From: Polyangia bacterium
GTDB taxonomy: Bacteria; Myxococcota_A; Polyangia; Fen-1088
DNA: 64,000 bases
NCBI GenBank assembly: GCA_035578045.1
Contig: DATJWP010000096.1
Location: 18,623-82,622 of the forward strand
Direction of reading: 5' to 3'
Of this stretch, positions 7,481-58,775 are shown piece after piece; within the stretch, counting starts at the first letter, position 1, and each line of letters opens with the position of its first letter. Position numbers and translations under genes: made by a program. The notes under the pieces were generated by a model that searched no databases, was not told the origin of the DNA, and saw nothing but the letters and a program-made list of their open reading frames with translations.

Positions 7481-9793
7481 TCAGCTCATCTCGAGCCGGG
7501 CGCCGCTGGGCGGCGCGGTGGCCTCGGCGGCGACGGACAGCAGCGCAGTGAGCCCGTGGCGCTTGTTCACGTACCAGACGCGCGCCTCGCGGTCGTGGCT
7601 GCCGTTGTCGGCGCTGCCCGAGAAGAACACGACCGGCAGGCGCGGGTGGCGCCGGCGGACGGTGGCGGCCAGATCGGGGCCGGTCATCTCGCCGGCCACC
7701 AGGTCCAGCAGCAGCAGGCAGGGTGGGGCCGACGAGGTCGGGCCATCCAGGAACGCGACCGCCTCCTGGACGTCGCGCACGCAGACCACGCGATAGCCCC
7801 CGTTCTCGAGCAGCTCGACCACCTGCGCCCGCACGCTGTCCTCGTTCTCGCAGTAGAGGACGGGGCCCAGGGCGCGGGCGGGGGCGGCCTCGCGGCGGAA
7901 CGGGGCCATGGCGGCCGCCTCCGTGACGGGCAGGTAGACGAAGAACGTCGACCCCGTGCCCGGCGCGGATTCGACCCGCATGTGTCCGCCGGCCTGCTCG
8001 ACGATGCCGTAAGCGGTCGACAGACCCAGCCCGGTGCCGCGGCCCTCGGCCTTGGTCGTGAAGAACGGCTCGAACACGCGGCGGGCGGTGGCGGCGTCCA
8101 TTCCGGTGCCGGTGTCCTGGACGCTCAGCACGGCGTAGCGCCCGGGCCGTCCCACAGCGCCGTCCACCAGGCTCTCGGCGTCCGTCGACACGACCACCGT
8201 GCCGCCGGCCGGCATCGCGTCCCGGGCGTTGGTCACCAGGTTGATGATCACGCGCTCGATCTGCGCCGGGTCGGTCAGCACGCTGGGAATGGCCGGCGCG
8301 CAGCGGATGTCGAGCCCCATCGAGGCCGGGATCAGGCGCCTCAGCAGCGGCCGCAGGTTCTCGAGCAGCGCCGACAGGTCGACGGCCGAGATCTGCAGCG
8401 GCTGCTGCCGGCTGACCGCCTGCAGCTGGCGGGTCAGCACGGAGGCGCGATCCGCGGCCTTGCGGATGTCCAGCAGGTCGGCCGCCGCCGCGCGCCCGCC
8501 GTCCAGCGCCGCCCTTCCCAGCTGCGCGCTGGCCGCCTCGACACAGGACCAGATCACGAAGATCAGGTTGTTGAAGTCGTGGGCGATGCCTCCGGCGAGC
8601 TGGCCGATCGCCTCCATGCGCTGGCTGTCGACGGCCCGGGCCTCCAGCTCGACCTCGCGGGTGATGTCCCTGCCGACCCCCTGGAACGCCAGGCTCTCGC
8701 CGCGCGGCGAGAAGATGCCCCGGATCACCCAGCGGTGGGTGCGCCGCTGCCCCTGCAGCGGGCCGCGGCTGGGGGTGGCGTGCGCGATGATTTCGACGGT
8801 GGGGGACTCCGGGGTCAGCGCCATCGCGGTCGACCACAGGCGGTCGCGCTCGGCCGGATCGACCGGGGTCAGGACCGAGAGGCCCAGGACGTCCTTCACA
8901 TCCCGGTCGTAATACCGGCAGAGGGCCGAGTTCACGTAGGTCAGGCGGCCGTCGCCCGAGAACCGGAACACCATGACCGGCAGGTCCTCGACCATCCGCC
9001 GGTAACGCTCCTCGCTCTCCCACAGCGCCTCGGTGCCGATCCGCAGCTGGTGGCGCGCGGCGACCAGCTCGCGCTCGGCGTCCTCGCTGAGCAGGATCGA
9101 CAGCACGGGGCGCGGGTCCAGCCGCAGACCGTAGCGGCGGACTTCGTACGACAGGTAGGCGGCCACGACGGGCGCCAGCAGCGCCGCGACCAGCGCGCGC
9201 GAGAAGACGATCCCGCCCAGCTCGGCCCGCAGCTTGCCGTACTGGTGCGCCACCGGCACGTAGATCAGGCCGTCGGCCACGAACACCACCGCCAGCGTCA
9301 CGAAGACGGGCAAGAGCAGCGGGGCCCCGCGGAGGCGGCGGCGGAAGGCCTCCCAGACCAGGCCCAGCAGCACCAGGTCCATCAGCGACGCGGCGATCGA
9401 TGCCAGACTGGCCCGCAGGCCGCTGGCCGGGAACATCGCCTCCGGAAAGGCCGGGAACTGCGCGTGCATGATGGTCGCCATCAGCGCGTAGAGCAGCCCA
9501 GACCCCATCACGACCACCAGCGCCGCGCGCCCGGCAAACCGACCGTCCGCGACGTACAGCAGGAAGACCGACAGCAACGTCGCCGAGAAGAAGATGTTGG
9601 AGCCGACGTTCAGCTGCAGGTCCCCGACCGGGACCATCGAGTGGTGGGTCGCGATCCAGGACCCCAGGCGCATGAAGGCCAGGACGGCGTACGAGTAGAC
9701 CAGGGTCGTGCGGCGGCGCAGAGCGTGAACGCCCAGCACAATCGCGAACACGACGACCGCCTCCACCAGGAGGTACACGACCTTGTCGCTCAC
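7481..9793 (-). CDS. Hybrid sensor histidine kinase/response regulator with a multi-TM N-terminal sensor and a PAS domain
   Basis: 770 aa. About 6-7 hydrophobic helices are followed by a PAS-like region. H-box IAHDFNNL; N, G1 and G2 boxes NLVTNARDAM, DTGTGMD and GTGLGLS. The C-terminal receiver has LLLLDL and VVFFSG. Confidence 0.9.
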   Translation of the reverse strand: MSDKVVYLLVEAVVVFAIVLGVHALRRRTTLVYSYAVLAFMRLGSWIATHHSMVPVGDLQLNVGSNIFFSATLLSVFLLYVADGRFAGRAALVVVMGSGLLYALMATIMHAQFPAFPEAMFPASGLRASLASIAASLMDLVLLGLVWEAFRRRLRGAPLLLPVFVTLAVVFVADGLIYVPVAHQYGKLRAELGGIVFSRALVAALLAPVVAAYLSYEVRRYGLRLDPRPVLSILLSEDAERELVAARHQLRIGTEALWESEERYRRMVEDLPVMVFRFSGDGRLTYVNSALCRYYDRDVKDVLGLSVLTPVDPAERDRLWSTAMALTPESPTVEIIAHATPSRGPLQGQRRTHRWVIRGIFSPRGESLAFQGVGRDITREVELEARAVDSQRMEAIGQLAGGIAHDFNNLIFVIWSCVEAASAQLGRAALDGGRAAAADLLDIRKAADRASVLTRQLQAVSRQQPLQISAVDLSALLENLRPLLRRLIPASMGLDIRCAPAIPSVLTDPAQIERVIINLVTNARDAMPAGGTVVVSTDAESLVDGAVGRPGRYAVLSVQDTGTGMDAATARRVFEPFFTTKAEGRGTGLGLSTAYGIVEQAGGHMRVESAPGTGSTFFVYLPVTEAAAMAPFRREAAPARALGPVLYCENEDSVRAQVVELLENGGYRVVCVRDVQEAVAFLDGPTSSAPPCLLLLDLVAGEMTGPDLAATVRRRHPRLPVVFFSGSADNGSHDREARVWYVNKRHGLTALLSVAAEATAPPSGARLEMS

Positions 9794-9921
9794 CGCTTCC
9801 CCTCCCGGAGCGGGAGGTTATCGCAAAACGGGCGCTTGGGGCACCGTGCGGCGTCGCGGTCGCAAGGAAGCGAAGGAAGGCGGCCGCCGGCCGGGGGCCA
9901 TCACGGACACTGGCCGGTGGC

Positions 9922-11634
9922 CTAGGGTGATCCGCCGACCACCCGCAGCTCGGCCACGCTGGTCCAGGCCTGCCCGCTCACCTCGGACAGAGCGACCAGC
10001 CGGATGTAGCGGCCGGTCTTGCGCGTGAACATCACCCGCTGGGCGCTCAGATCCTGGGTGAAGGTGCCGGTCGCGACCGCGTCCCCCCAGTTCGTCTTGT
10101 CGCTGCTGACGTAGAACTGCCAGTCGGCGATCATGCCGTGGTTGCTGCCGTCCTGGCGGGCGACGTACTGGAACCCCTCGACGCCGTACGAGGCGCCCAG
10201 GTCGATCTGGATCTCGTGCGGGTGCGCCGGCGCGCTGCCGGTGTACTGCGTGTGCCAGAAGGTCGAGGTCGAGCCGTCGAAGGCGTTGGTGGCCTTGTCG
10301 TTCTCGTCCTGCGTCTCCTGGCTGTCGGCGTAGACCAGCGACCAGCCGCTCTGCGAGATCAGCGTCTGGTCGTCCGACCACTGCCCGGTGGCCAGGTCCA
10401 GCTGCCACTGCGTGTAGTCGTTCAAGGTCAGCGAGGTGCCCGAGATCTGGATGGGGATCCAGATGTACTTCGAGCTGACCAGATCGGGGTCCTGCCAGCG
10501 GTCGGCCGCGAAGATGTACGTGGTGGCTGCCCCCGGTTGGCTGCCGGTGAACGGGATGACGTAGGCCGACTGCGTGTCGAAGGTGGTGCTGTCGCCCACG
10601 TTCGTCAGGCTGCCCCAGGGGCCGGCCATGCTGGTGGCCGACGCGTACTGCGCCTGGTTCGAGTCCCAGCCGGTCGCCGCCGACGCGATCAGGTAGTAGC
10701 GCCCGTTCTGCTTGAAGACGGCGGGGGCCTCGCGCGACTTGCCCGCGAACACCTTGGCCACCTGGCTCTTGACGGTCAGGTAGTCGTCCGAGAGCTGGTA
10801 GATCATCATGTCCTGGTTGTTGTTGGCGGCCGAGATGAAGTAGGCGGTGCCGTCGTCGTCCTTGAACAGCGTGTCGTCGCGCGACATGTTGCCGTCGGGC
10901 TGGAAGTGGCTCTTTTGAACGTAGTCGCCGTCGACCGTGGGGCCGGTGAAGACGCCGGCCTCCGCGGTCGCGTAGTTCGCCCCATCCCAGTGCAGCCACA
11001 TCACGTACTGCTGGGTCGACTCGTTGTAGACGACCTTGGGGCGTTCGATGATCCGGTCCGAGGCGGCCAGATCGGTCGAGGTCTGCCGGGTGATGATGGC
11101 GTTGCGGAACTCCCAGTTGACCAGGTCCTTGGAGGCGTAGCAGTTGACCGCGTTGAAGTTCCCCGAGTTCTTGGACTTGTCCTCGCCGACCCAGTACCAG
11201 GTGTCGCCGACCTGGATGAACCCGCCGCCGTGCGCCTCGATGCGCTTGCCGCTGGTGTCGTTCCAGAACCCGTTGTTGGCGATGGTGACCCAGTCGCCGG
11301 CGCCGGAGACTCCGCCCGCGGGGGTCGAGCCGCCCGACCCGCCCGGGGCGCCGGCCGCGCCACCGCCTGCGTGACCACCGGTGCCGGCCGGGCGCCCCGC
11401 GGCGCCGCCGGTCCCGCCCGTCGCGCGGATTCCGCCCTGGCCGCCCCCGGGGTTGCCCGCGACGCCCGTTCCCCCGGTGGCCTGGACCCCGCCGGTGCCG
11501 GCGGGTGCGCCGCCGCTGCCGGTCGCGCCGCCGCCCGTTCCGGTTCCGCCCGTCCCGCTCGCGTCCTGCGTCCCTTTGCCGCCGCAGGCGGCCGCCAGGA
11601 CGGCCACCAGGAACGTCAGCCGAAATCGGCGCAT
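9922..11634 (-). CDS. Glycoside hydrolase family 43 lipoprotein with a C-terminal F5/8 type C (CBM32-like) domain
   Basis: Lipobox LAAACG and a Gly-rich linker. The GH43-like core has IEAHGGGFIQVGDTWYWVGEDK and PAVFKQNGRYYLI. The discoidin-like C-terminus has NAFDGSTSTFWHT..IRLVALSE. Confidence 0.85.
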   Translation of the reverse strand: MRRFRLTFLVAVLAAACGGKGTQDASGTGGTGTGGGATGSGGAPAGTGGVQATGGTGVAGNPGGGQGGIRATGGTGGAAGRPAGTGGHAGGGAAGAPGGSGGSTPAGGVSGAGDWVTIANNGFWNDTSGKRIEAHGGGFIQVGDTWYWVGEDKSKNSGNFNAVNCYASKDLVNWEFRNAIITRQTSTDLAASDRIIERPKVVYNESTQQYVMWLHWDGANYATAEAGVFTGPTVDGDYVQKSHFQPDGNMSRDDTLFKDDDGTAYFISAANNNQDMMIYQLSDDYLTVKSQVAKVFAGKSREAPAVFKQNGRYYLIASAATGWDSNQAQYASATSMAGPWGSLTNVGDSTTFDTQSAYVIPFTGSQPGAATTYIFAADRWQDPDLVSSKYIWIPIQISGTSLTLNDYTQWQLDLATGQWSDDQTLISQSGWSLVYADSQETQDENDKATNAFDGSTSTFWHTQYTGSAPAHPHEIQIDLGASYGVEGFQYVARQDGSNHGMIADWQFYVSSDKTNWGDAVATGTFTQDLSAQRVMFTRKTGRYIRLVALSEVSGQAWTSVAELRVVGGSP

Positions 11635-34902: not shown

Positions 34903-36633
34903 ATGAAAAGGTCTGCGCTGTCGGCGGCTCTGGTCACGCTGCTCGGGCTCGGTGCCTCCGGCACCGCCCGGGCGACCGACTACTACGTGGCCACGGACGG
35001 GAGCGATTCGAACCCCGGCACGATGGACATGCCGTTCGCCACCCTGCAGAAGGGGGCCAGCGTGGCGGCCGCGGGCGACACCGTCTACATCCGGGGCGGG
35101 ACCTACAAGATCACGACGCCCGCCAACAGCGGCGCGGGGATCAACTTCACGAAGAGCGGGACCTCGGACACGAACCGGATCAAGTACTGGGCCTACCCGG
35201 GAGAGACCCCGGTCTTCGACTTCACGAACCTGGTCATCTCGACGACCGGCTACACCATGGGGTTCGTGGTGAACGCCAGCTACCTGCACTTCAAGGGGCT
35301 GGAGATCTGCTGCGTGCCGATGAACATGTTCTCGAACAACGGCATCTCGGTGGATGGCAGCTCCGGCCACGACATCTTCGAGCAGCTCAACATGCACCAC
35401 AACAGCGGCAACGGGATCTTCGTGGGCAACAAGAGCGGCGGCGGACACCAGATCGTCAACTGCGACGCGCACGACAACTACGACGCGACGTCCAACCAAG
35501 GCCAGGGGCAGAACGCCGACGGCTTCGGCGTCCACTACCAGACCACGGGCGACACGACGATCATCCGCGGCTGCCGATCCTGGTGGAACTCCGACGACGG
35601 CTACGACCTGATCAACCAGGAGGTCCCCGTCACCGTCGAGAACTCCTGGGCGTTCGGCAACGGCTACGCCATGTACGGCACCTTCAACCCGGCCGACGGG
35701 AACGGCAACGGGTTCAAGATGGGGTCCAGCCAGACCGGCATCCGCCACCTGGTGCAGAACAACGTCGCCTGGAAGAACAAGGCCAGCGGCTTCTACGCCA
35801 ACCATTCGACGGGCGGGAACACCTGGTACAACAACACGTCGTTCATGAACGGGACCCAGTACAACATGCTGGCCAGTCCGGCCGGCGATCCGAACACGAC
35901 CATCACGTTGACCGGATCGCTGGTTCACATCATGCGCAACAACATCGGCTACCCGAACAAGAACACCAACATGACGGGCGTCGACACCATGTTCAACACC
36001 TGGGACCTGAGCATCACGCCGGCCGGCAGCGACTTCGCCAGCATCGCCGATCCCAGCGTCTCGATGACCGGCATGGCCATCGAGGGGATGGGCGCGCTCG
36101 GCCCGCGCCAGGCCGACGGCAGCCTCCCCGACGTCGACTTCCTGACGCTGTCGGCAGCCAGTCGAATGATCGACAAGGGGACTGACGTGGGCCTTCCGTA
36201 CGTGGGAGCGGCGCCGGATCTGGGCGCCTACGAGTACGGCGCGACGCCGGCCAGCGGCACGGGCGGGACCGGCACGGGGGGAACCGGGACCGGCGGGACC
36301 GGGACCGGCGGAACCGGCACGGGAGGCAAGGCCACTGGCGGCGGCGGGATCGCCGGCTCTGCGGGGCGGGCCGGCACCGGCGGCGCCGGCGTGGCCGCCG
36401 GCGGTCGCTCGGGGACCGGCGGCACGGCTCCCGTCGACGCCGGCACGGCGTTGGGGACCGGCGGCACGACCACCGGGACGGGCGGCTCGGGGACCGGCGG
36501 CGCCACGGGCACGGACGAATCCGGCTCGGCAGGCTGCGCGTGCGCCGTCGAGGCGCGACCGCCGGCCGGCGCGCTCGCGCTCGCGGTGGCCCTCCTGGGC
36601 GCCTTCGTGGTTCGGCGCCGCCGCTCGCGTTGA
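34903..36633 (+). CDS. Secreted right-handed beta-helix polysaccharide-lyase-like protein (pectate lyase superfamily) with a MYXO-CTERM tag
   Basis: Signal peptide. DYYVATDGSDSNPGT..PFATLQKG..GDTVYIRGGTYK is followed by beta-helix repeats. A GTGGT linker precedes the C-terminus GCACAV..LAVALLGAFVVRRRRSR. Confidence 0.75.
   Translation: MKRSALSAALVTLLGLGASGTARATDYYVATDGSDSNPGTMDMPFATLQKGASVAAAGDTVYIRGGTYKITTPANSGAGINFTKSGTSDTNRIKYWAYPGETPVFDFTNLVISTTGYTMGFVVNASYLHFKGLEICCVPMNMFSNNGISVDGSSGHDIFEQLNMHHNSGNGIFVGNKSGGGHQIVNCDAHDNYDATSNQGQGQNADGFGVHYQTTGDTTIIRGCRSWWNSDDGYDLINQEVPVTVENSWAFGNGYAMYGTFNPADGNGNGFKMGSSQTGIRHLVQNNVAWKNKASGFYANHSTGGNTWYNNTSFMNGTQYNMLASPAGDPNTTITLTGSLVHIMRNNIGYPNKNTNMTGVDTMFNTWDLSITPAGSDFASIADPSVSMTGMAIEGMGALGPRQADGSLPDVDFLTLSAASRMIDKGTDVGLPYVGAAPDLGAYEYGATPASGTGGTGTGGTGTGGTGTGGTGTGGKATGGGGIAGSAGRAGTGGAGVAAGGRSGTGGTAPVDAGTALGTGGTTTGTGGSGTGGATGTDESGSAGCACAVEARPPAGALALAVALLGAFVVRRRRSR
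36256..36330 (+). repeat. 15-nt (GTGGT pentapeptide) tandem coding repeat, 5 units
   Basis: The units are ggcacgggcgggacc, ggcacggggggaacc, gggaccggcgggacc, gggaccggcggaacc and ggcacgggaggcaag. Confidence 0.65.
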
Positions 36634-37006: not shown

Positions 37007-37072
37007 GTCACGGGAAGCCGGTGTAGAGCAGGGGCCATTGCTCTGGACGGCGTCCTGTGCGAATCGATCCGG

Positions 37073-38209
37073 ATGCGACGAAGCCTGGCCGCGTGGTCCG
37101 CGCTGGCGATGGCGCTTTCGGCCTGTTCGTCCTCGAGCGGCGGGTCCGGGTCCGGCGGGTCCGGAGCCGGCGGAACCGGGGGCCAGGCGGGCGGACCCGG
37201 CCAGGCCGGTACGGACGGTCAGGCAGGTAGGGCCGGACAGGCCGAGGCGACGGGCGGCGCCGTCGCCTCGACCGGTGGCATCGGCGCGGCCGGCTCCGGT
37301 GGACGCGGCGATGGGGCCGGCGGAAGCGGCGGTGGCGCCGGGGCAGCGGCCGGCGGCGCCGGCGGACGCTCCGCGGGCGGTTCACCTGGTGCCGGCGGCA
37401 GCGGTTCGCAGGTCTGCGGCATGGGCGCCGAGAACGACAACGTTGCTTTGACCTGCCCGAACGGACAGGTCATCGCCGGCGTCGTGTTCGCCAGCTTCGG
37501 AACGCCGGCCGGAGCCTGCGGGGCGTTCACGGCGGGCGCCTGCGACGCGACCGACTCCGTCCCGCTGGTCAATGCCCTCTGCGTCGGGCGCTCCGCCTGC
37601 ACCATCCCGGCCAGGAACGACGTGTTCGGCGACCCGTGCGACAAGACAACGAAGAGCTTCGCCGTCGAGGTCAGCTGCGGAGCGGTGGCCAGCGCAAACA
37701 GCGGCTGTCCGTTCTCGGGCCACGTCACCTATACGCTGACCAGGTCGGCGAACCCCACCGCCGACGAGCAGACCGCCTACGACGAGATCACGGTCGCGAT
37801 GGACGCCGCCGTCGCCATGTACAACTGCTACGCGAACATCACCAAGGCCGACACCGTCACCTACAACACCGGCGTCCAGACCGCCGACGGCAACGTCAAC
37901 GGCTCGATCCGCTTCGGCCCCGACTCGACGTACAGGACGATGCCGACCTCCATGCACGAGATCGGCCATACCGTCGGGATCGGCAGCGCGCCGTTCGACG
38001 CGCTGGTGAGCAACGGCATCTTCACGGGCACGAACGCCACCAATCAGCTCCGCGCGATCACGGGCAACGCGACCGACCAGGTCAACGCCGACCAGATGCA
38101 CTTCTGGCCCTACGGCCTCAATTACGACAGCGAGTACCACGACATCAACGACGGCATCGACCACTGCAAGATGGTCACGGCAATCCGCAAGGACATGGGG
38201 ATGAACTGA
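37073..38209 (+). CDS. Secreted lipoprotein with a SUEL-type (galactose-binding) lectin domain plus an HExxH domain
   Basis: ATG at 37073 within track ORF 36680..38209. Lipobox LSACS. Lectin motif [24 protein letters not shown]...[22 protein letters not shown]. The C-terminal domain carries [11 protein letters not shown]. Confidence 0.7.
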
Positions 38210-38211
38210 CC

Positions 38212-40794
38212 GTGGCCGACCTACATCCCACCCTGCGCGAGCTGGCGGCCGGCCTCACGCTGGCCACCGGCCAGAAGCACAAGGTCGTCGTCCCCAAGCT
38301 GGACGTCGACACGATCGAGATGGAAGACATCCACTTCCACCACAACAGCGACGTGGTGCTGCCCTGGGGGTATGGCGAGGAGACCGGGCTCGACGACGAC
38401 CAGGACCGGCTGTCCGGCATCTCGGTGATCGCCGCGGCCCTCCGTTATGCCAAGGACAACCCGTCGAAGAAGCTGCTGCTGGCGGGCCACACCGATTCGT
38501 CGGGCGAGTCCGACTACAACCGAAAGCTGTCGGAGGCCCGCGCCAAGACCACCAAGGCGCTGCTGACGGACGACAAGTCGGGCTGGGGCAGCCTGTGCGT
38601 CGAACACCAGACGGTCGAGGACCTGCAGCAGACGCTGCTCTGGGTCGCGGCGACCCACGGCTGGCCGTGCAACCCGGGCCCGATCGACGACACGATGGGC
38701 CCGAAGACCCAGGCGGCCCGCCGGGCGTTTCGCAAGCGCTACAACGACGAGTTCTCCGCTTCACTGCCGCTCGACGCCGAGGAGACGTCAGCCCAGGACT
38801 GGGAAGCTTTCTTCGACCTCTTCGATCTCGGCCTGCAGGACGAGCTGGGCGACGACCTGAGCGCGTGCCGGTCGGCGCTGTCTTTCTACAGCCCGGACAT
38901 CCTGGCCTGCGGCGAGGACTTCGCCGAGGGGGACAACAGCCCGGCGGGGATGCGGTCGGTGGCGGACCGCCGGGTCGACATGCTCTTCCTCGATCCCTCG
39001 AAGCCGTATCCGGATTTCTTTTCCGAGAAGCCGCCCGGCAATTCCATCTATGGCCCCGTGCCGCTGGTCAAGCGACGCTACCTCCCGGTGGCTCCGCCGG
39101 TTCAGCTCGCGCTCAAACTGACGGCCATCGAGGGGCTGTACCCGCCCGGCTTCAAGCAGGACGGCGACGTGGCGCCCAAGGCCTCCGGCTACAATGAAGG
39201 TTATCTCAGCGAAGACGATCTGGGCCGGGTCTTCGTCAACCACAAGCCGCGCACCGACCCCACCCAGGCCTGGGACGACGTCGTCACCAAGGACACGCAA
39301 TACATCGAGCTGGAGGCTTCCGTCGAGCTGGTCCAGGGCCCGAAGATCCCGCCCGAGGCGCGCGTCCAGTGGGAATGGTTCGATCCCAACGACAAGGACC
39401 ACCCGGACACGAACGCGCACGGCGCGCTGGTTCCCGACCAGGTCGACGTGGACGGCCGGGCGCGCAGCATGCTGAACCGCGGGACGTGCGACTTCCCCAA
39501 GCCCGGCAGCAAGGACATGGCCCGCTTCGGTCAGGCGGGCGATTTCGGTTTTGCCGACGCGGCCACCGTGAAGCTCGCCGACACGCAGATCACGGACGGC
39601 ACCAGCCGGGTGCGGCTGCACGTCAGCAACGTCGCCGGCGACAACTTCGTCGTCGTGGCGCGCCTCAAGAACTCGCCGCGCGTCGCTCCTTCGGGGCAGG
39701 TGCGCACCGGGGTGATGACGGTGTGGAAGCGGATCGACGTCGAGTACGTGAAGATGGCCGGCGCCTTCTCGCTGCCGGTCGATCAGGTGCCGCCGTTCTT
39801 CGAGCCGGCGCGCGTCCAGATGGACTTCGCCCCCGAGCGCCCGGTGCCGTCCCAGCACTTTCTCACCAAGCTCGACAAGGATAAGGAGTCGGCCTGCGCG
39901 ATGTACGCCACGGCTTCGAATGGCGAATTCAAGTTAGAAGGGAAGCCCGGATGGTTCTTCCTGGCGGCGGCCGAGCGGTGTTCCAGCGAGAACGCTAGCT
40001 CACCCAGCGATGGTGGCCCGAAGACGGTTTACCGGGGCAAGGCCCGGGTGGCCCAGGCGAGCGGAGGCGGAGAGAACTGGGAGAAGCTGGTCGTCGATCA
40101 GGTCATCACCGACAAGGTCGCGATCGTTACCGTGCACGACGTCGAGGGCGGTCCAAGGGGCTTCCAACCGATTTGGAAGAAACAGGTCACCGGCAACCAG
40201 ACGCACCTGCACCTGTGGGGCATCGACTACCAGTCGGACTTCGAGGTACCGCGTGGCCAGAAGACGGGTTTGCTCGGCGCTCCCGGGAAGGGCGGCGCCT
40301 ACGACAAGACGGACAACTACTACCTCCAGCACCGGTTCCGGTACCCTTCCAGCGCTTGGGAGCCGGGCGGGATGGGGTTCGCCGACGAGGTGTTCATCAA
40401 AGCGGCGCCGCCGGGAACAACGGAGACCACCGGCCTCAGCCCCAGCGCGCGCTTCGCGGGGCAGGAGTACTTCGCGGGCCGGTTGTTGATCTTCACGCGC
40501 GCCTTCGAGGCGACGTCACTAGACGCCGACGACGTGGTCAGCACGATCGTCCACGAGTTCACCCACGCCTTCGGCTATCCGCACAAGTGCGGCTATTACG
40601 GCTGGCCGCAACCGCCCGAGTTCAGCTGCTCGATGAATTACTTCCTCACCTGGATCTACAAGGTCGGGACGCGCGAGCTGCAACGGTTCTTCTTCGGCAC
40701 GTCCGGGGGGCACCTCTGTTCGAAGCACCTGTCAGGCGTCCGCGAGGTGAACCTGGAAGACAACCCAGCTATCTGGAAGTGGAGCGGCTCGTGA
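38212..40794 (+). CDS. OmpA-like plus peptidoglycan-binding-like plus large metzincin-motif protein, no signal peptide seen
   Basis: GTG start 2 nt after the previous stop. OmpA_C-like region IHFHHNSDVVLP..LLLAGHTDSSGESDYNRKLSEARA. PG_binding-like region LQQTLLWVAATHGWPCNPGPIDDTMGPKTQAARRAF. Near the C-terminus, HEFTHAFGYPH (HExxHxxGxxH) is followed by CSMNY (Met-turn-like). Confidence 0.7.
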   Translation: MADLHPTLRELAAGLTLATGQKHKVVVPKLDVDTIEMEDIHFHHNSDVVLPWGYGEETGLDDDQDRLSGISVIAAALRYAKDNPSKKLLLAGHTDSSGESDYNRKLSEARAKTTKALLTDDKSGWGSLCVEHQTVEDLQQTLLWVAATHGWPCNPGPIDDTMGPKTQAARRAFRKRYNDEFSASLPLDAEETSAQDWEAFFDLFDLGLQDELGDDLSACRSALSFYSPDILACGEDFAEGDNSPAGMRSVADRRVDMLFLDPSKPYPDFFSEKPPGNSIYGPVPLVKRRYLPVAPPVQLALKLTAIEGLYPPGFKQDGDVAPKASGYNEGYLSEDDLGRVFVNHKPRTDPTQAWDDVVTKDTQYIELEASVELVQGPKIPPEARVQWEWFDPNDKDHPDTNAHGALVPDQVDVDGRARSMLNRGTCDFPKPGSKDMARFGQAGDFGFADAATVKLADTQITDGTSRVRLHVSNVAGDNFVVVARLKNSPRVAPSGQVRTGVMTVWKRIDVEYVKMAGAFSLPVDQVPPFFEPARVQMDFAPERPVPSQHFLTKLDKDKESACAMYATASNGEFKLEGKPGWFFLAAAERCSSENASSPSDGGPKTVYRGKARVAQASGGGENWEKLVVDQVITDKVAIVTVHDVEGGPRGFQPIWKKQVTGNQTHLHLWGIDYQSDFEVPRGQKTGLLGAPGKGGAYDKTDNYYLQHRFRYPSSAWEPGGMGFADEVFIKAAPPGTTETTGLSPSARFAGQEYFAGRLLIFTRAFEATSLDADDVVSTIVHEFTHAFGYPHKCGYYGWPQPPEFSCSMNYFLTWIYKVGTRELQRFFFGTSGGHLCSKHLSGVREVNLEDNPAIWKWSGS

Positions 40795-41627
40795 GCCAGG
40801 AGCAAGGCCAGGAAAAAGGTGAGGATCAGACCGAGTTGAGCTTGCGGCTGCGGGCACCGGCCACGGCGACGGCGGGGCTGCTGCCGCTGTTCGTCGAGGT
40901 GACTCTGGCGAACGACAACGAGGCGACCGACTACTACGCCCTAACGAACTGCGATCCCTGGTCACCGCCGTTCCCGGTGGAGTTCACGTTGAGCGGGGAG
41001 GGTGGAGAAGTCACCTTACCGGCGAGATCCACCGCCACCGCCGGCGCGACGCCGACCGGATTCGATCTCCTGCCCCACCAGGCCCGAACTTTCGTGTTGG
41101 ACCTGTCGGAGCTCGAGACGGACGTGCCGCCCGGCGCCTGGCGGCTCTCGGCCCGCTGGGTCATGCGCCACGAGCAGCCGCGATCGTCGCCGGTCTCGAT
41201 CACTTTCGAGGCGGGCGACCCCGCCGACGCGCCGCTGATCCGGCGGTTGCGTGGCCTCGGTGGCGGGACCTCTCCGTCCTGGGCGAACCTGATCCAGGAG
41301 CGGGCCGCGCTTGACGACGAGGCCTTGCGGCGGCTGTCGGCGTCCAGCCGCCGGACGCTGCTGCCCTACCTGATCCTTCACGAGGCCGTGCATGGTCCCC
41401 AGCCCCTGTCGCAGCTCCCGCTCGAGTTCCTATCGGCGCACTTCCAGGGTCCCTGGGCCAGCGAGGCCAGCGTGCTGACGTACGAGCTCTTCTCCGCTCG
41501 GGCGGTGCCCGATCTCGCTGCAAGGCGGGCGGCCATCCTCGCGCGCTGGCCGGGTGTCGAATTCCGGCTGGACCAGGTCGATCGGGGCGCGGGCCTGCTC
41601 ACGCTCTGGCGCGAGGAATACCGATGA
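40791..41627 (+). CDS. Hypothetical protein, translationally coupled partner
   Basis: The GTG overlaps the upstream stop (GTGA). 278 aa, no signal peptide and no recognised motif. Confidence 0.55.
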   Translation: MSQEQGQEKGEDQTELSLRLRAPATATAGLLPLFVEVTLANDNEATDYYALTNCDPWSPPFPVEFTLSGEGGEVTLPARSTATAGATPTGFDLLPHQARTFVLDLSELETDVPPGAWRLSARWVMRHEQPRSSPVSITFEAGDPADAPLIRRLRGLGGGTSPSWANLIQERAALDDEALRRLSASSRRTLLPYLILHEAVHGPQPLSQLPLEFLSAHFQGPWASEASVLTYELFSARAVPDLAARRAAILARWPGVEFRLDQVDRGAGLLTLWREEYR

Positions 41628-41995
41628 GGTCTATCGCCGTCCTATTGCTGGGCGCCCTGAGCGCCTGCCAGTACGCCGTTCCCGAGGCGCAGGGTGCGGC
41701 GCCGCAGCGCCGAGACGACGCTGGGCTCACCGATGCGGCGGCCAAAGAGCGCCAGCCGGACCGGCGGTCATCTAAGGATTCCCTGGTCGGCCTCACCCGC
41801 AAGCAGCTCCTGGCACGTCGCGGGGCGCCGACCAGGAAGGAAGGCGGCCGATGGATCTACACGTCCGACCAGTCGGGTTGCCGCGACAGGATCGTCAACG
41901 AGGTCGTCACTTTTGAGGGCGATCGGGTCGCGCGCGTGACGCTGCAATTTCGCCATACCACCGAGGATTGCGGCATCATGCCGGGGCTCCGCTGA
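41624..41995 (+). CDS. Small lipoprotein (BamE/SmpA-OmlA-like fold suspected)
   Basis: The ATG overlaps the upstream stop (ATGA). Lipobox LSACQ. The segment GLTRKQLLARRGAPTRKEGGRWIY resembles SmpA_OmlA. Confidence 0.6.
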   Translation: MRSIAVLLLGALSACQYAVPEAQGAAPQRRDDAGLTDAAAKERQPDRRSSKDSLVGLTRKQLLARRGAPTRKEGGRWIYTSDQSGCRDRIVNEVVTFEGDRVARVTLQFRHTTEDCGIMPGLR

Positions 41996-41997
41996 GC

Positions 41998-42885
41998 ATG
42001 CCCGCCGTCGACCAGTCGGTGCGGTTGCTGGCGGCTTCCGGGCCGGTCACGGCGGTGCTCGGGTCGCCTGGCCGCGCGGGCGACACCAATGCGATCCGGA
42101 CCAACGAGGCGCGGGCGATCTTGCTGGAGCTGCGGCGCGACGAGGCCTGGCCGGCGCTGGTCGCGCTGCATGAGCTGGCGATGGGCTTCGAGGTTCATCT
42201 TCCGTCTCGGGTCGCGTCGGAAGAGCTGGCGGAGGGGATCGAGGAGGCGCTCGAGGCCGGCCGGCTCTGGTTCTACCGAGGCTGGGGCGGGCTGGCGGGC
42301 GGAGCGGCGGACGGGGCCGGCGCTTTCGCCAATGGGCCCGCCGCAGAGCTGGCGCGCGACCTGGTGGGCGGGCAGGGCGACGTGTTTCTCGACGGGCGCC
42401 AGTATCGCCTGGTGCCCGCCGGCATCGTGAGCGCGGGGTTCGTGGGGGACGACTACCGCCCGGTCGCGCCGGCCGAGGCGCGTGGCCTGATCGAGCGGAT
42501 GGCGGCGCGCTTCACCCGCCGGCCCGACTTCCGTGGACGCTGGGAGCAGGCCGCGGGGCTGCTGACGGACGGTAGCGACGAGAACGGGCTGATGCTCCTG
42601 CGCTACACCCCGCCCAGCGGGGGCGTCGCGCCCGCCGACGAAGCGCCCGCGACGACCCCTTCGCAGCTCAAGCCCGCGATCGCGCCCGAGTACTGGATCG
42701 AGATCGAGCTGGTCTACGACGACGACACACCCTTCGACGGGAGCAGCCAGCTCCAGCTGCCGGGCGGGCGCACCATCGACGCCACGCCCGACGAAAGCGG
42801 GGTGGTCCGGGTCGACGGGCTGACGGCGGACGGCGACTGCAAGCTGACGTTCCCGGACATCGCGGCGGCGCTCGGTCCGTCCTGA
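41998..42885 (+). CDS. Hypothetical protein, last gene of the five-gene operon
   Basis: ATG 2 nt after the previous stop. 295 aa. The C-terminal 70 aa are beta-rich (YWIEIELVYDDDTPFDG..VVRVDGLTADGDCKLTF). Confidence 0.55.
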   Translation: MPAVDQSVRLLAASGPVTAVLGSPGRAGDTNAIRTNEARAILLELRRDEAWPALVALHELAMGFEVHLPSRVASEELAEGIEEALEAGRLWFYRGWGGLAGGAADGAGAFANGPAAELARDLVGGQGDVFLDGRQYRLVPAGIVSAGFVGDDYRPVAPAEARGLIERMAARFTRRPDFRGRWEQAAGLLTDGSDENGLMLLRYTPPSGGVAPADEAPATTPSQLKPAIAPEYWIEIELVYDDDTPFDGSSQLQLPGGRTIDATPDESGVVRVDGLTADGDCKLTFPDIAAALGPS

Positions 42886-56831: not shown

Positions 56832-57548
56832 ATGAACCTGATCACCGCGCTGAAGTCACTGTTCGTCGGATCCGGCGCCACCTGGATCCTGTGGTTGCTG
56901 CTGGGGCTGGCGGGCGTGGCGCTGGCGATCGCCGTCGAGCGCGCGCTCTACCTGCGCGGCCGGGACGCCGACCTGGGCGGCCTGGCGCGCGCCCTCGAGG
57001 CGCGCCTGGAGGCGCGCGACGTCGCGGGGGCTCGCAGGGTGCTGGCCGGATCGCGTTCCTTGGCGGCCTCGGTCGCCGCCGCCGGCCTGCGGGTCGCGCA
57101 CCTTGGTCCGGCCGCCGCCGAGAGAGCGATGCAGGGAGCGTCGGCCGTCGAGCGCGCGCGGCTGGAAGCTCGCCTGGCCTTTCTCGGCACGCTGGGCAAC
57201 AACGCCCCGTTCGTCGGTCTGTTCGGCACCGTCGTGGGGGTCGTTCAGGCCTTCGACCGGCTGGGCGTGACCGGCGCCGGCGGCGCCGCCGGCCAGGCCG
57301 CGTCGCAGGCGGTCATGGCGGGCATCTCGGAGGCCCTGATCGCGACGGCCGTCGGGATCGGCGTCGCGCTGCCGGCGGTCGCCGCTCACAACTACTTCCA
57401 GCGTCGGATCAGCCGGCTGCTGGACGGGACGGAAGCGGTCAACAGCGTCGTCCTGGCTTACCTGCTGGCCGAGGAGCCGCCGCCGGACGGGTTGGTGGTG
57501 GCGGACGTCGCGTCGGAACCGGCCGCCGCGCGGCTGCGGGGGGCCTGA
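56832..57548 (+). CDS. exbB: MotA/TolQ/ExbB proton-channel protein
   Basis: 238 aa with three TM helices. Conserved LGTLGNNAPFVGLFGTVVGV and ALIATAVGI. Confidence 0.85.
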   Translation: MNLITALKSLFVGSGATWILWLLLGLAGVALAIAVERALYLRGRDADLGGLARALEARLEARDVAGARRVLAGSRSLAASVAAAGLRVAHLGPAAAERAMQGASAVERARLEARLAFLGTLGNNAPFVGLFGTVVGVVQAFDRLGVTGAGGAAGQAASQAVMAGISEALIATAVGIGVALPAVAAHNYFQRRISRLLDGTEAVNSVVLAYLLAEEPPPDGLVVADVASEPAAARLRGA

Positions 57549-57549
57549 G

Positions 57550-57984
57550 GTGGCCGGTGCGGCGAGCACCCCGGGGCGCGGGCGCGCGGGGGCGATCATC
57601 GAGGGCATCAACGTCACGCCCCTGGTCGACATCATGCTGGTGCTGCTGGTGATCTTCATCGTGACCGCCAAGGTTCTGGTCACACCGGCCGTGCCGCTGG
57701 ACCTGCCCAAGGTGGCGCGGGCGGACGAGATCCAGGTGGTCTTTGCAGTGACGATCCCGGTCCAGGGGGAGACGCGCGTCGACGGTCAGCCCGTCGCCGA
57801 CGAAGCGGCGCTGGCGGCGCTGGCGGCGGCCGCGGTGGCCCGCGATCGCGATCTGCGCGCGGTCATCCAGGCCGACGGCGCCGTGCCGCACCGGCGGGTG
57901 GTGCGCGCGCTGGATGCGCTCCGGCGGGCCGGCGTCGAGAAGGTGGCGGTCGCCACCCAGCTGGAAGACCAGGGGGCGCGTTGA
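57550..57984 (+). CDS. exbD: ExbD/TolR biopolymer transport protein
   Basis: INVTPLVDIMLVLLVIFIV and a periplasmic domain with a VIQADGAVPHRRVVRALDALRRAG-type segment. Confidence 0.85.
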   Translation: MAGAASTPGRGRAGAIIEGINVTPLVDIMLVLLVIFIVTAKVLVTPAVPLDLPKVARADEIQVVFAVTIPVQGETRVDGQPVADEAALAALAAAAVARDRDLRAVIQADGAVPHRRVVRALDALRRAGVEKVAVATQLEDQGAR

Positions 57985-58775
57985 TGCGACACGCCCGCGC
58001 TCGCTACCTGGCGTTCGCCACCGGCGAGCGGCCGCACCGGCTGGCAGCGAGCCTGTTCGGACCCGCCGGAGGCTCGTCGCGATCGCGTCTGCTGGCTGGT
58101 GCCAGCGTCGCCGCGGCCGCCTACACGGCGCTGGGAGCATGGATTGCCACGCGCCCCGGGCGGCCGGCGCACGCGTCGCCGCACCCGCCCGAGGTCGCCG
58201 TCGAGCTGCTGGTGACGCGGCCGCTTCCCATCCCGCCTCCTTCACCCGCGAGCCCGCGAGCTGTTCGGCGGGTGTCGGTGGCGCACGCGTCGCCACCTCC
58301 GGCGCGGGCGGCCCAGCCAGCGCAGGCGGCGCCCGTCGTGGCGCGAGCGGCCGCGCCCGAGGCGCCCCTGGACCTGACCGACTTCTCGATCGCAACCGGC
58401 GGTGCGACGCGCTCGGCCGGCGGCGCGACGTCCAGCTCTGGCCCGGCGGGGGCCGCCGATTCCGCGCCGGGCGCGGGCGAGCCGATGCCGGACCTTTCGC
58501 GGCCGGTCTCGATTCGCGACACCGAGTGGCGGGACTGCGCCTGGCCCGCTCAGGCCGACGCCCTGGGCGTCGACGAGCAGGTCGTCGCCATGCGCGCGAT
58601 CGCCTCCGCCGAGGGCCAGTTCGAGTCGGGTGAGGTGGTGGGCGACCCGGGTTACGGGTTCGGCGCCGCGTTGCTCTCGTGCGCGCGGCGCCATGGGTTC
58701 GCGCCGGCGCTCGACCGGCAGGGGCGCCCCGTGCGGGCCCGCTCCGGGCTCATTCGCTTCACTTTCACCAGATGA
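57984..58775 (+). CDS. tonB: TonB family energy transducer
   Basis: The ATG overlaps the exbD stop (TGATG). One TM helix, a Pro/Ala-rich spacer, and a divergent TonB_C-like end (..FAPALDRQGRPVRARSGLIRFTF). Confidence 0.7.
   Translation: MRHARARYLAFATGERPHRLAASLFGPAGGSSRSRLLAGASVAAAAYTALGAWIATRPGRPAHASPHPPEVAVELLVTRPLPIPPPSPASPRAVRRVSVAHASPPPARAAQPAQAAPVVARAAAPEAPLDLTDFSIATGGATRSAGGATSSSGPAGAADSAPGAGEPMPDLSRPVSIRDTEWRDCAWPAQADALGVDEQVVAMRAIASAEGQFESGEVVGDPGYGFGAALLSCARRHGFAPALDRQGRPVRARSGLIRFTFTR

Follow-up and report, generated by a model that had tools for sequence, protein, structure and literature searches.

What is the role of a large bacterial protein that joins a peptidoglycan-binding head to a tail resembling a zinc protease, and that carries no recognizable signal for export? 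We address this question for the product of an 860-codon gene of a Polyangia bacterium, an uncultured myxobacterium from soil, within a window (the whole stretch of DNA analysed) of 64,000 nucleotides from contig DATJWP010000096.1 (positions 18,623 to 82,622, forward strand; GenBank assembly GCA_035578045.1); coordinates below are those of the window. The product of 38212-40794 is identical to a protein from a metagenome-assembled genome (MAG) deposited as 'OmpA family protein [Polyangia bacterium]' (P0001), a label that masks the real nature of the gene. With moderate confidence, we suggest that this protein, hereafter the effector, would leave the cell as cargo of a type VI secretion system (T6SS) or of a closely related contractile injection system (CIS), and would act as a cell-wall-anchored protease heading a four-gene cassette. 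The model is built on the architecture and conservation of the protein, on the cassette, and on the type VI spike genes that adjoin its relatives; given the last, the effector probably represents a toxin family, so far undescribed, whose members are injected into rival bacteria.

Architecture and conservation of the effector

The open reading frame is really coding and native to its genome, since its G+C at third and second codon positions (GC3 0.90, GC2 0.45 over the whole frame) is like that of its neighbours, in a window of 66-75% G+C. A horizontally acquired island, an idea raised by lower GC at 38-42 kb, was ruled out on the same GC3. A translation start at the GTG at 38212, 2 nt past the stop of the upstream gene, is supported by 14 full-length homologs (down to 37% identity) that share this aligned position. 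A reading of the sequence made beforehand, without database searches (the sequence-only reading), had remarked on the non-hydrophobic N-terminus and had named an upstream in-frame start with a signal peptide as a finding that would overturn it. No such start was found: the extension to 37231 is out-of-frame, Arg-rich, and devoid of any hydrophobic stretch, and it overlaps with the real upstream gene. The remark itself was borne out, for the highest 19-residue Kyte-Doolittle window of the effector is 1.13, and it thus has neither signal peptide nor transmembrane helix. Hydropathy scans and N-terminal alignment revealed no Sec or Tat signal in the effector or its full-length relatives, and an export signal is absent from all of more than 100 family members.

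The motifs quoted by the sequence-only reading all occur in the translation, two of them OmpA C-terminal-like (IHFHHNSDVVLP, amino acids (aa) 40-51; GHTDSSGESDYNRKLSEARA, aa 92-111) and one PG_binding_1-like (WPCNPGPIDDTMGPKTQAARRAF, aa 151-173). An OmpA-like domain and a PG_binding_1-like segment are there as proposed; their consecutive order, however, did not hold, the PG_binding-like piece being nested within the OmpA-like fold, whose last strand ('DRRVDMLFLD') is formed by aa 252-261. The OmpA profile (PF00691) scores 28.9 bits against a gathering cut-off of 27.2 over aa 71-120, with only half of the profile aligning because of the insertion in the fold, and the head also gives partial matches to Pal, YfiB, and OprF. 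In an AlphaFold2 (AF2) model built with 36 homologs (mean predicted local distance difference test, pLDDT, 79.6; predicted template modelling score, pTM, 0.69), the OmpA-like region reaches a pLDDT of about 80-95 and is predicted to adopt the beta-alpha-beta-alpha-beta-beta fold of OmpA-like domains. On this model, Foldseek aligns OprF (5u1h_A, TM(target) 0.60) and Klebsiella pneumoniae OmpA (7rjj_A, 0.64) over ~230 columns, a span so long because a four-helix segment (aa ~120-222; modelled helices 122-132, 135-149, 164-181, and 194-221) is inserted in the OmpA fold. PG_binding_1 (PF01471) has no match in the effector itself at E <= 1; the aligned segment of three homologs scores 32.6 (P0036), 25.2 (P0033), and 24.6 bits (P0027), against a cut-off of 23. 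Five residues of the head are conserved, H93, D95, L106, S107, and R110, with D95 in at least 90% of sequences and R110 invariant; the effector displays the last-named two within GHTD...LSEARA. Pal and Acinetobacter baumannii OmpA hold the diaminopimelate (DAP) carboxylate of peptidoglycan through an Asp and an Arg. The effector head keeps this Asp/Arg pair, and is predicted to bind DAP likewise.

Behind the head, aa ~286-760 are beta-rich, and Foldseek finds there only Ig-like, pilin, and integrin beta-sandwiches. This region includes a core, common to the effector and to 544-aa proteins of Sorangium, with the family motifs IEGLYxPG, GYxSxDDxGRIFVNH, WxWxDPxD, AGDNF, and WKRIDVEY.

The tail carries the zinc-binding consensus HEFTHAFGYPH followed by CSMNY (aa 806-810). 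The distance of 17 residues first given between the two is approximate, the Met lying 16 residues beyond the third His. The sequence-only reading depended on conservation of HExxHxxGxxH among homologs, and conserved it is: HExxH...H is kept in 132 of the 135 relatives scanned, the exceptions being P0031 (QGICQ), P0171, and an apparently frameshifted P0022. Chance does not account for the zinc motif: H781, E782, H785, G788, H791, C793, C806, M808, N809, and Y810 are invariant or nearly so. An extended signature, HExxHxxGxxHxC-x12-CxM-x26-28-CxxH, is kept in 159 of 161 sequences (about 98%). The effector itself reads HxC-x12-CxM-x27-CxxH; 12 and 26-28 are the modal spacings in the 159 relatives, with C-x12-C found in 111 of them. 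The closing CxxH (C836, H839) is invariant in alignments A7 and A10. The putative Met-turn residue M808 is invariant in the alignments and aligns with C-I-M of the snake-venom protease BaP1.

We searched with two profiles, A5 (the last 171 residues of the effector) and the broader A10 (30 sequences). No Pfam or NCBIfam model covers the catalytic domain, and with the full effector the OmpA segment was the sole match in Pfam, NCBIfam, and PDB sequences. Across 66 relatives, the weak, sub-threshold Pfam matches fall in the zincin/metzincin clan only: Reprolysin_5 in 49 (best E = 2.6e-5), M66 in 20, M10 in 13, other Reprolysin models in 12-13, M54 in 6, and astacin in 4. The Reprolysin cut-off of 27 bits was not reached (P0027, 18.5 bits), and the effector has no match to it. 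Against PDB sequences A5 recovered nothing relevant, and the matches of A10 were almost all metzincins: myroilysin (E = 0.0033), BaP1 (0.0069, aligned through Cys-x-Met), archaemetzincin 2x7m (0.26), as well as MMP-14, astacin, and ADAMs. Taken together with its conserved motifs, the catalytic tail appears to represent a new metzincin-type zinc protease family. By analogy, the Cys3His cluster is a putative structural zinc site, of a kind that would suit a protein folding in the cytoplasm. A link to phage lysins was also considered and dropped, Foldseek against the BFVD viral structures having given nothing.

The cassette, the family and neighbouring spike genes

The four genes of the cassette abut, with a GTGA overlap at 40791, an ATGA overlap at 41624, and a two-base gap at 41996 (table 1). 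The second gene, the partner, lies directly downstream of the effector in 83 of 86 loci; loci without it end at a contig edge, one partner gene is convergent, and two loci (L002 and L052) carry it duplicated in tandem. It has no relative in Pfam or PDB, even with a 16-sequence profile, and a second large search returned close 'hypothetical proteins' only. Two homologs, in L025 (L025:648-1637 (+)) and P0226, one of them from a Salinivenus MAG, possess an N-terminal signal peptide, and the compartment of the partner may differ between lineages. The third gene encodes a small lipoprotein with homologs in 17 loci (L005, BLASTP E = 2e-9), all in the subfamily headed by the OmpA-like/PG_binding_1-like (OmpA-PGB) unit and none in other subfamilies, located either after the partner or upstream of the effector. 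The fourth, a 295-aa protein, was placed by pairwise and iterative searches, a global alignment (A4) with N-terminal extensions being uninformative and the window copy having no Pfam match. Its C-terminal sandwich resembles the prealbumin (transthyretin)-like repeats of P0038 (E = 5e-6) and the N-terminal extension of P0027 (E = 4e-4). Orthologs stand downstream of the partner in L042 and L044, and in L005, L014, L016, L046, and L048 the gene just before the effector encodes a ~200-aa protein with a similar sandwich. P0027 and P0028 have this upstream protein fused to the effector N-terminus, a Rosetta-stone link between the transthyretin-like protein and the effector.

Profile A5 retrieved 212 representative clusters (50% identity) at E <= 1e-3, with 57 at E <= 1e-30. 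The family of at least 212 clusters is unannotated throughout, the members looked up being all 'hypothetical protein'; it belongs mostly to soil and sediment Myxococcota, twelve complete Sorangium genomes included, and our loci represent Polyangia, Nannocystaceae, and Sorangium, together with one MAG each of Planctomycetales and Salinivenus. Unrelated bodies also bear the OmpA-PGB unit: it is joined to two other large C-termini (P0033/P0036, and P0034/P0035, the latter with HESGHG), follows a zinc ribbon in P0030, and in P0038 comes after a CIS_spike_tip domain (26.8 bits, cut-off 24.1) and two prealbumin-like sandwiches. In turn, most members of ~700 aa have the core and metzincin body behind a beta-rich N-terminal module, a few have it behind LysM (Pfam E = 4.9e-6), and the 544-aa Sorangium members have no head. 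The beta-rich module, the commonest of the wider family, has no Pfam match, and the 'C2-like' look that it has by eye is not claimed here. Judged from these sequences, the OmpA-PGB head is a swappable module.

Several relatives adjoin genes of the type VI spike. Spike proteins (VgrG) were called with single-pass phmmer and Pfam, because a three-round jackhmmer search with a VgrG query drifted onto the transthyretin-like domain. In a Polyangia MAG (L030), a 914-aa VgrG (Phage_GPD 187.5, Gp5_trimer_C 97.8, Phage_base_V 57.3 bits) stops 15 bp short of a family member whose active site is intact and whose partner gene comes next. In Sorangium So ceGT47 (L031) the order is effector, partner, DUF2169, and VgrG (Phage_GPD 262 bits); in L089 a VgrG lies 2.5 kb from the member; and in eight Sorangium genomes a DUF2169 protein (168.8 bits) comes after the partner gene. 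The gene upstream of the member in L062 was tried as a further VgrG and, with only 15.5 bits to Phage_GPD, was not counted. DUF2169 is a family of T6SS adaptors whose neighbours are enriched in spikes and effectors, and myxobacteria hold the largest adaptor repertoires (PMC7714669). By a rough estimate, from a handful of such genes among ~8000-10000 per genome, immediate vgrG/DUF2169 adjacency in several independent lineages is very unlikely to be due to chance. At the C-terminus of the L030 VgrG, ~60 residues match the sandwich found in small proteins encoded upstream of members in L054, L058, and L062, and an iterative search links them to the sandwich of our 295-aa protein; transthyretin-like domains of VgrG proteins are known to dock cargo effectors (PMC7043769). 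The non-classical export or effector-like life style first proposed from the lack of a hydrophobic N-terminus finds support in the absence of a signal peptide throughout the family, in the partner gene, in VgrG and DUF2169 adjacency, and in the CIS spike-tip fusion.

Other features of these loci are worth recording. Directly after the effector-partner pair of L013, a 735-aa protein (L013:4612-6816 (+)) combines repeated prealbumin-like sandwiches, Peptidase_M15_3 (41.2 bits), and a Cys-rich N-terminus that is PAAR/DUF4280-like by eye; it is probably a second, spike-borne wall hydrolase effector. In P0031 (L010:2466-4505), whose HExxH has decayed to QGICQ, the Cys/Cys/Met/Cys/His positions are kept; a convergent partner gene is adjacent (L010:4536-5402 (-)), and a double transthyretin-like protein is encoded nearby, as are OmpA and PG_binding_1 on genes of their own. 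Two genes past the closest genomic ortholog, an 833-aa protein (L011:11973-14474 (+)) with CarboxypepD_reg-like, OmpA, and PG_binding_1 segments reuses the wall-binding module in the same locus, and its N-terminal part resembles the 295-aa protein of the window. Around P0038, a divergent 405-aa OmpA-like gene (L008:8541-9758 (-)) and a downstream 797-aa gene without family (L008:12215-14608 (+)) may form another orphan spike-effector island.

Closer to the effector, the upstream neighbour (37061-38209 (+)) encodes a protein with a lipoprotein-type signal, a Gly/Ala-rich linker, a SUEL/rhamnose-binding lectin domain (PF02140, E = 5.5e-18), and a C-terminal HExxH motif without Pfam family; it looks like a secreted lectin-metalloprotease separate from the cassette. 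Before it, a Pel9A-like beta-helix protein (34903-36633 (+)) has a long (GTGG)n-type Gly/Thr linker and a C-terminus, 'GCACAVE - hydrophobic stretch - RRRRSR', that by eye resembles a MYXO-CTERM sorting signal. An ExbB/ExbD/TonB-type cluster (56832-58775 (+)), beside PepSY_TM and TonB-receptor-plug genes, is an ordinary iron-uptake context unrelated to the effector.

Table 1. Coordinates of the cassette genes and of the parts of the effector
Feature	Position	Strand	Evidence or remark
Effector gene, 860 aa	38212..40794	+	Split OmpA-like/PGB head, beta-rich core, C-terminal metzincin-like domain
OmpA-like peptidoglycan-binding domain (aa ~30-262), interrupted by insertion	38299..38997	+	Pfam OmpA, Foldseek
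PG_binding_1-like helical bundle (aa ~120-222) inside OmpA-like fold	38569..38877	+	Model; homolog PF01471 scores
Conserved beta-sandwich core (aa ~286-527), no known family	39067..39792	+	Model, family motifs
C-terminal catalytic region (aa 528-860), metzincin-like zinc peptidase	39793..40794	+	Profile searches
Zinc-binding consensus HEFTHAFGYPH (HExxHxxGxxH), aa 781-791	40552..40584	+	Alignment
C793 to Met-turn C806-S-M808-N-Y	40588..40641	+	First two putative Cys3His ligands and conserved Met
C836-S-K-H839 (CxxH)	40717..40728	+	Conservation; completes putative structural Cys3His zinc site
Partner gene, 278 aa, no signal peptide	40791..41627	+	GTG start overlaps effector stop; candidate inhibitor/immunity protein or loading factor
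Lipoprotein gene, 123 aa, lipobox LSAC	41624..41995	+	ATGA overlap with partner; candidate periplasmic immunity protein
295-aa protein, C-terminal prealbumin/transthyretin-like sandwich (aa ~230-290)	41998..42885	+	Candidate spike-docking adaptor

Proposed mechanism and alternative readings

How would such a protein work? For its export, periplasmic action, and substrate, and for the roles of the three accessory genes, we infer the following route. The effector would fold in the cytoplasm, its Cys3His cluster binding a structural zinc instead of forming disulfides, as in cytosolic archaemetzincins. The cytoplasmic partner would hold it inactive or escort it, the transthyretin-like-domain protein would dock it on a VgrG/PAAR spike, and it would be fired into a neighbouring Gram-negative cell. 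In the prey periplasm, the OmpA-PGB head would fix the effector to the sacculus, where its protease would cut envelope proteins near the wall or possibly stem peptides. Sister cells would be protected by the cassette lipoprotein and/or the partner.

A number of observations weigh against this route. The hardest to accommodate is the cytoplasmic nature of the universal partner: about 48 of 50 copies have no signal peptide, which is unexpected for immunity against a periplasm-acting toxin, and the partner gene is retained beside the catalytically dead member P0031. The window contains no T6SS or CIS gene, nor is there one within 10 kb of seven other members examined; linkage is seen in a minority of loci. 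No peptidase family or structure matches the catalytic domain above threshold, no peptidase stands among the 50 best Foldseek matches listed for the full model, and the AF2 model of the catalytic region alone is unusable (pLDDT 52.6). The transthyretin-like assignment of the 295-aa protein comes from pairwise and iterative similarity, not from Pfam. Finally, metzincins are usually protein endopeptidases, and the substrate proposed here is therefore a guess. The partner may inhibit or load the effector before secretion, periplasmic immunity for the wall-binding subfamily then falling to the lipoprotein. More tentatively, and with a rather small chance of being right as a whole, we sketch a three-way control in which the ~280-aa partner is a zymogen lock rather than an immunity protein, the transthyretin adaptor is detachable or fusable, and the lipoprotein counters only PGB-headed versions, while the sacculus-fixed enzyme severs the tethers between outer membrane (OM) and wall (Lpp, Pal, OmpA-type). 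Such a control logic has not been described for T6SS effectors, and the severing of tethers, if true, would amount to a new way of killing.

Another possible site of action of the toxin is the cytoplasm. The effector and partner would then constitute a toxin-antitoxin-like or abortive-infection module, in which a protease held by the partner destroys cytoplasmic targets upon release, and the OmpA, PGB, and LysM heads would bind DAP-containing wall precursors (UDP-MurNAc-pentapeptide, lipid II). Both proteins lack a signal peptide, they form a universal and translationally coupled pair, and a Cys3His site fits a reducing compartment. Yet VgrG/DUF2169 adjacency and the spike-type fusions are left unexplained, the lipoprotein co-varies with the wall-binding head, two partner homologs do have signal peptides, and PADLOC defence models match no cassette protein beyond a generic OmpA/MotB resemblance; we therefore regard this module as unlikely. 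The NTP-dependent conflict systems of the Aravind type (PMC7159879) were also compared and do not fit, their OmpA effectors being preceded by transmembrane segments.

Improbable to a similar degree is an endogenous protease of envelope remodelling or autolysis (developmental lysis, spore formation, turnover of OM-wall tethers), regulated by the partner and reaching the periplasm by an unrecognized route or acting after cell lysis. Wall-binding domains are typical of resident envelope proteins, the window neighbours are ordinary secreted hydrolases and housekeeping genes, and programmed lysis takes place in Myxococcota, the group in which the family is concentrated. Such a protease would, however, be hard to reconcile with the lack of any export signal among more than 100 members and with hallmarks of conflict systems (swappable OmpA-PGB, LysM, beta-rich, or absent heads, a patchy distribution that extends to Planctomycetales and Salinivenus MAGs, and duplicated partners), and it leaves the linkage to spike and adaptor genes unexplained.

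The injection machine itself could be an extracellular contractile injection system (eCIS), a phage-tail-like particle, instead of a cell-anchored T6SS. The fusion of OmpA-PGB to Pfam CIS_spike_tip in P0038 points in this direction, as does the 449-aa gpD-like protein with a transthyretin-like end directly upstream of the member in L062, although it has only the 15.5 bits to Phage_GPD mentioned above. The three verified spike neighbours, on the other hand, are long VgrGs in which both Gp5_trimer_C and the T6SS/phage OB domain are present, the adaptors of the DUF2169 family belong to the T6SS, and no eCIS sheath, tube, or baseplate gene occurs in any flank examined, which makes an eCIS payload quite unlikely. 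Highly improbable, lastly, is a non-catalytic HExxH domain in a wall-binding scaffold or adhesin, for which P0031 (HExxH lost, fold-stabilizing Cys/His residues and partner gene kept) and the archaemetzincin-like CarG of Myxococcus xanthus, reportedly acting in transcription without protease activity, could be invoked, since the general base Glu and the three zinc-binding His are kept in the effector and in 132 of 135 relatives, a sign of selection on catalysis.

Overall, an injected, wall-anchored protease is the reading that we prefer. Its kind is known: T6SS effectors accompanied by protective genes have been described, among them metallopeptidases such as VgrG2b. In Pfam, NCBIfam, PADLOC, PDB sequences, and the searchable literature, however, we found no description of the metzincin family, of its Cys3His signature, of the nested OmpA/PGB targeting head, or of the partner, lipoprotein, and adaptor families. 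If true, our model adds a widespread unannotated effector family (at least 212 clusters) to the type VI/contractile-injection repertoire, and a new metzincin family with an archaemetzincin-like, metal-stabilized C-terminus. It would also make OmpA-like, PG_binding_1-like, and LysM domains exchangeable targeting heads on injected toxins, and provide three new accessory families (partner, lipoprotein, and transthyretin-domain adaptor) with testable roles. The culturable Sorangium cellulosum So ce56 has a member, making these predictions directly testable.

Comparison with known systems

VgrG2b of Pseudomonas aeruginosa (H2-T6SS, immunity PA0261) parallels the role proposed for the effector: it is a zinc metallopeptidase toxin on the T6SS spike, acting in the prey periplasm on wall-associated processes, with a transthyretin-like domain in delivery and a cognate protective gene directly downstream (PMC7043769). 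Its peptidase, however, is fused to the spike, whereas the 860-aa effector of the window would travel as separate cargo and has a peptidoglycan-binding head of its own, and one protective gene compares with two candidates in our cassette. Foldseek and PDB profile searches recovered no sequence or fold match between the two. VgrG-dependent, peptidoglycan-targeting cargo effectors of the T6SS, such as Tse4 of A. baumannii, are large, signal-less proteins that attack the cell wall and need a specific VgrG for loading (PMC11796386). Their folds are those of lytic transglycosylases or endopeptidases of known families, in contrast with the metzincin-like and non-catalytic wall-binding domains of our effector.

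Among metzincins, two groups invite comparison. Archaemetzincins (MEROPS M54; AmzA, human AMZ1/2, M. xanthus CarG) are cytosolic and signal-less, and the order of their elements, H-x-C, CxM, and a distal pair, is mirrored in the effector. Their fingerprint is HEXXHXXGXXHCX4CXMX17CXXC, in which four Cys bind a structural zinc beneath the Met-turn, replacing the disulfides of secreted metzincins; CarG has been treated functionally through complementation of a carG mutant (PMC3427221). The effector departs from this fingerprint: archaemetzincins are single-domain proteins of about 200 aa with HCx4CxMx17CxxC, whereas the effector family displays HxCx12CxMx~27CxxH with a His, not a Cys, as fourth ligand. 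Given the different spacing and the His ligand, we do not file it as M54. The best profile similarity is to the adamalysin/reprolysin group (M12B, e.g. BaP1), with all scores below family cut-offs; BaP1 aligns with the family from HExxHxxGxxH through the Cys-x-Met turn. Yet reprolysins are secreted, disulfide-bonded zymogens with pro-domains, whereas neither a signal peptide nor a pro-peptide occurs in the effector family, whose pattern of Cys and His suggests that it binds metal.

The head, finally, has its counterparts in OmpA C-terminal, Pal, and MotB domains, with which it has in common the fold and the conserved GHTD...LSxxRA residues. In known members, which are exported by Sec, the anchor is a barrel, a lipid, or a transmembrane helix. 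In contrast, the OmpA-like domain of the effector sits at the N-terminus without a signal peptide, is interrupted by the PG_binding_1-like insert, and serves as a swappable head on effector-like proteins.

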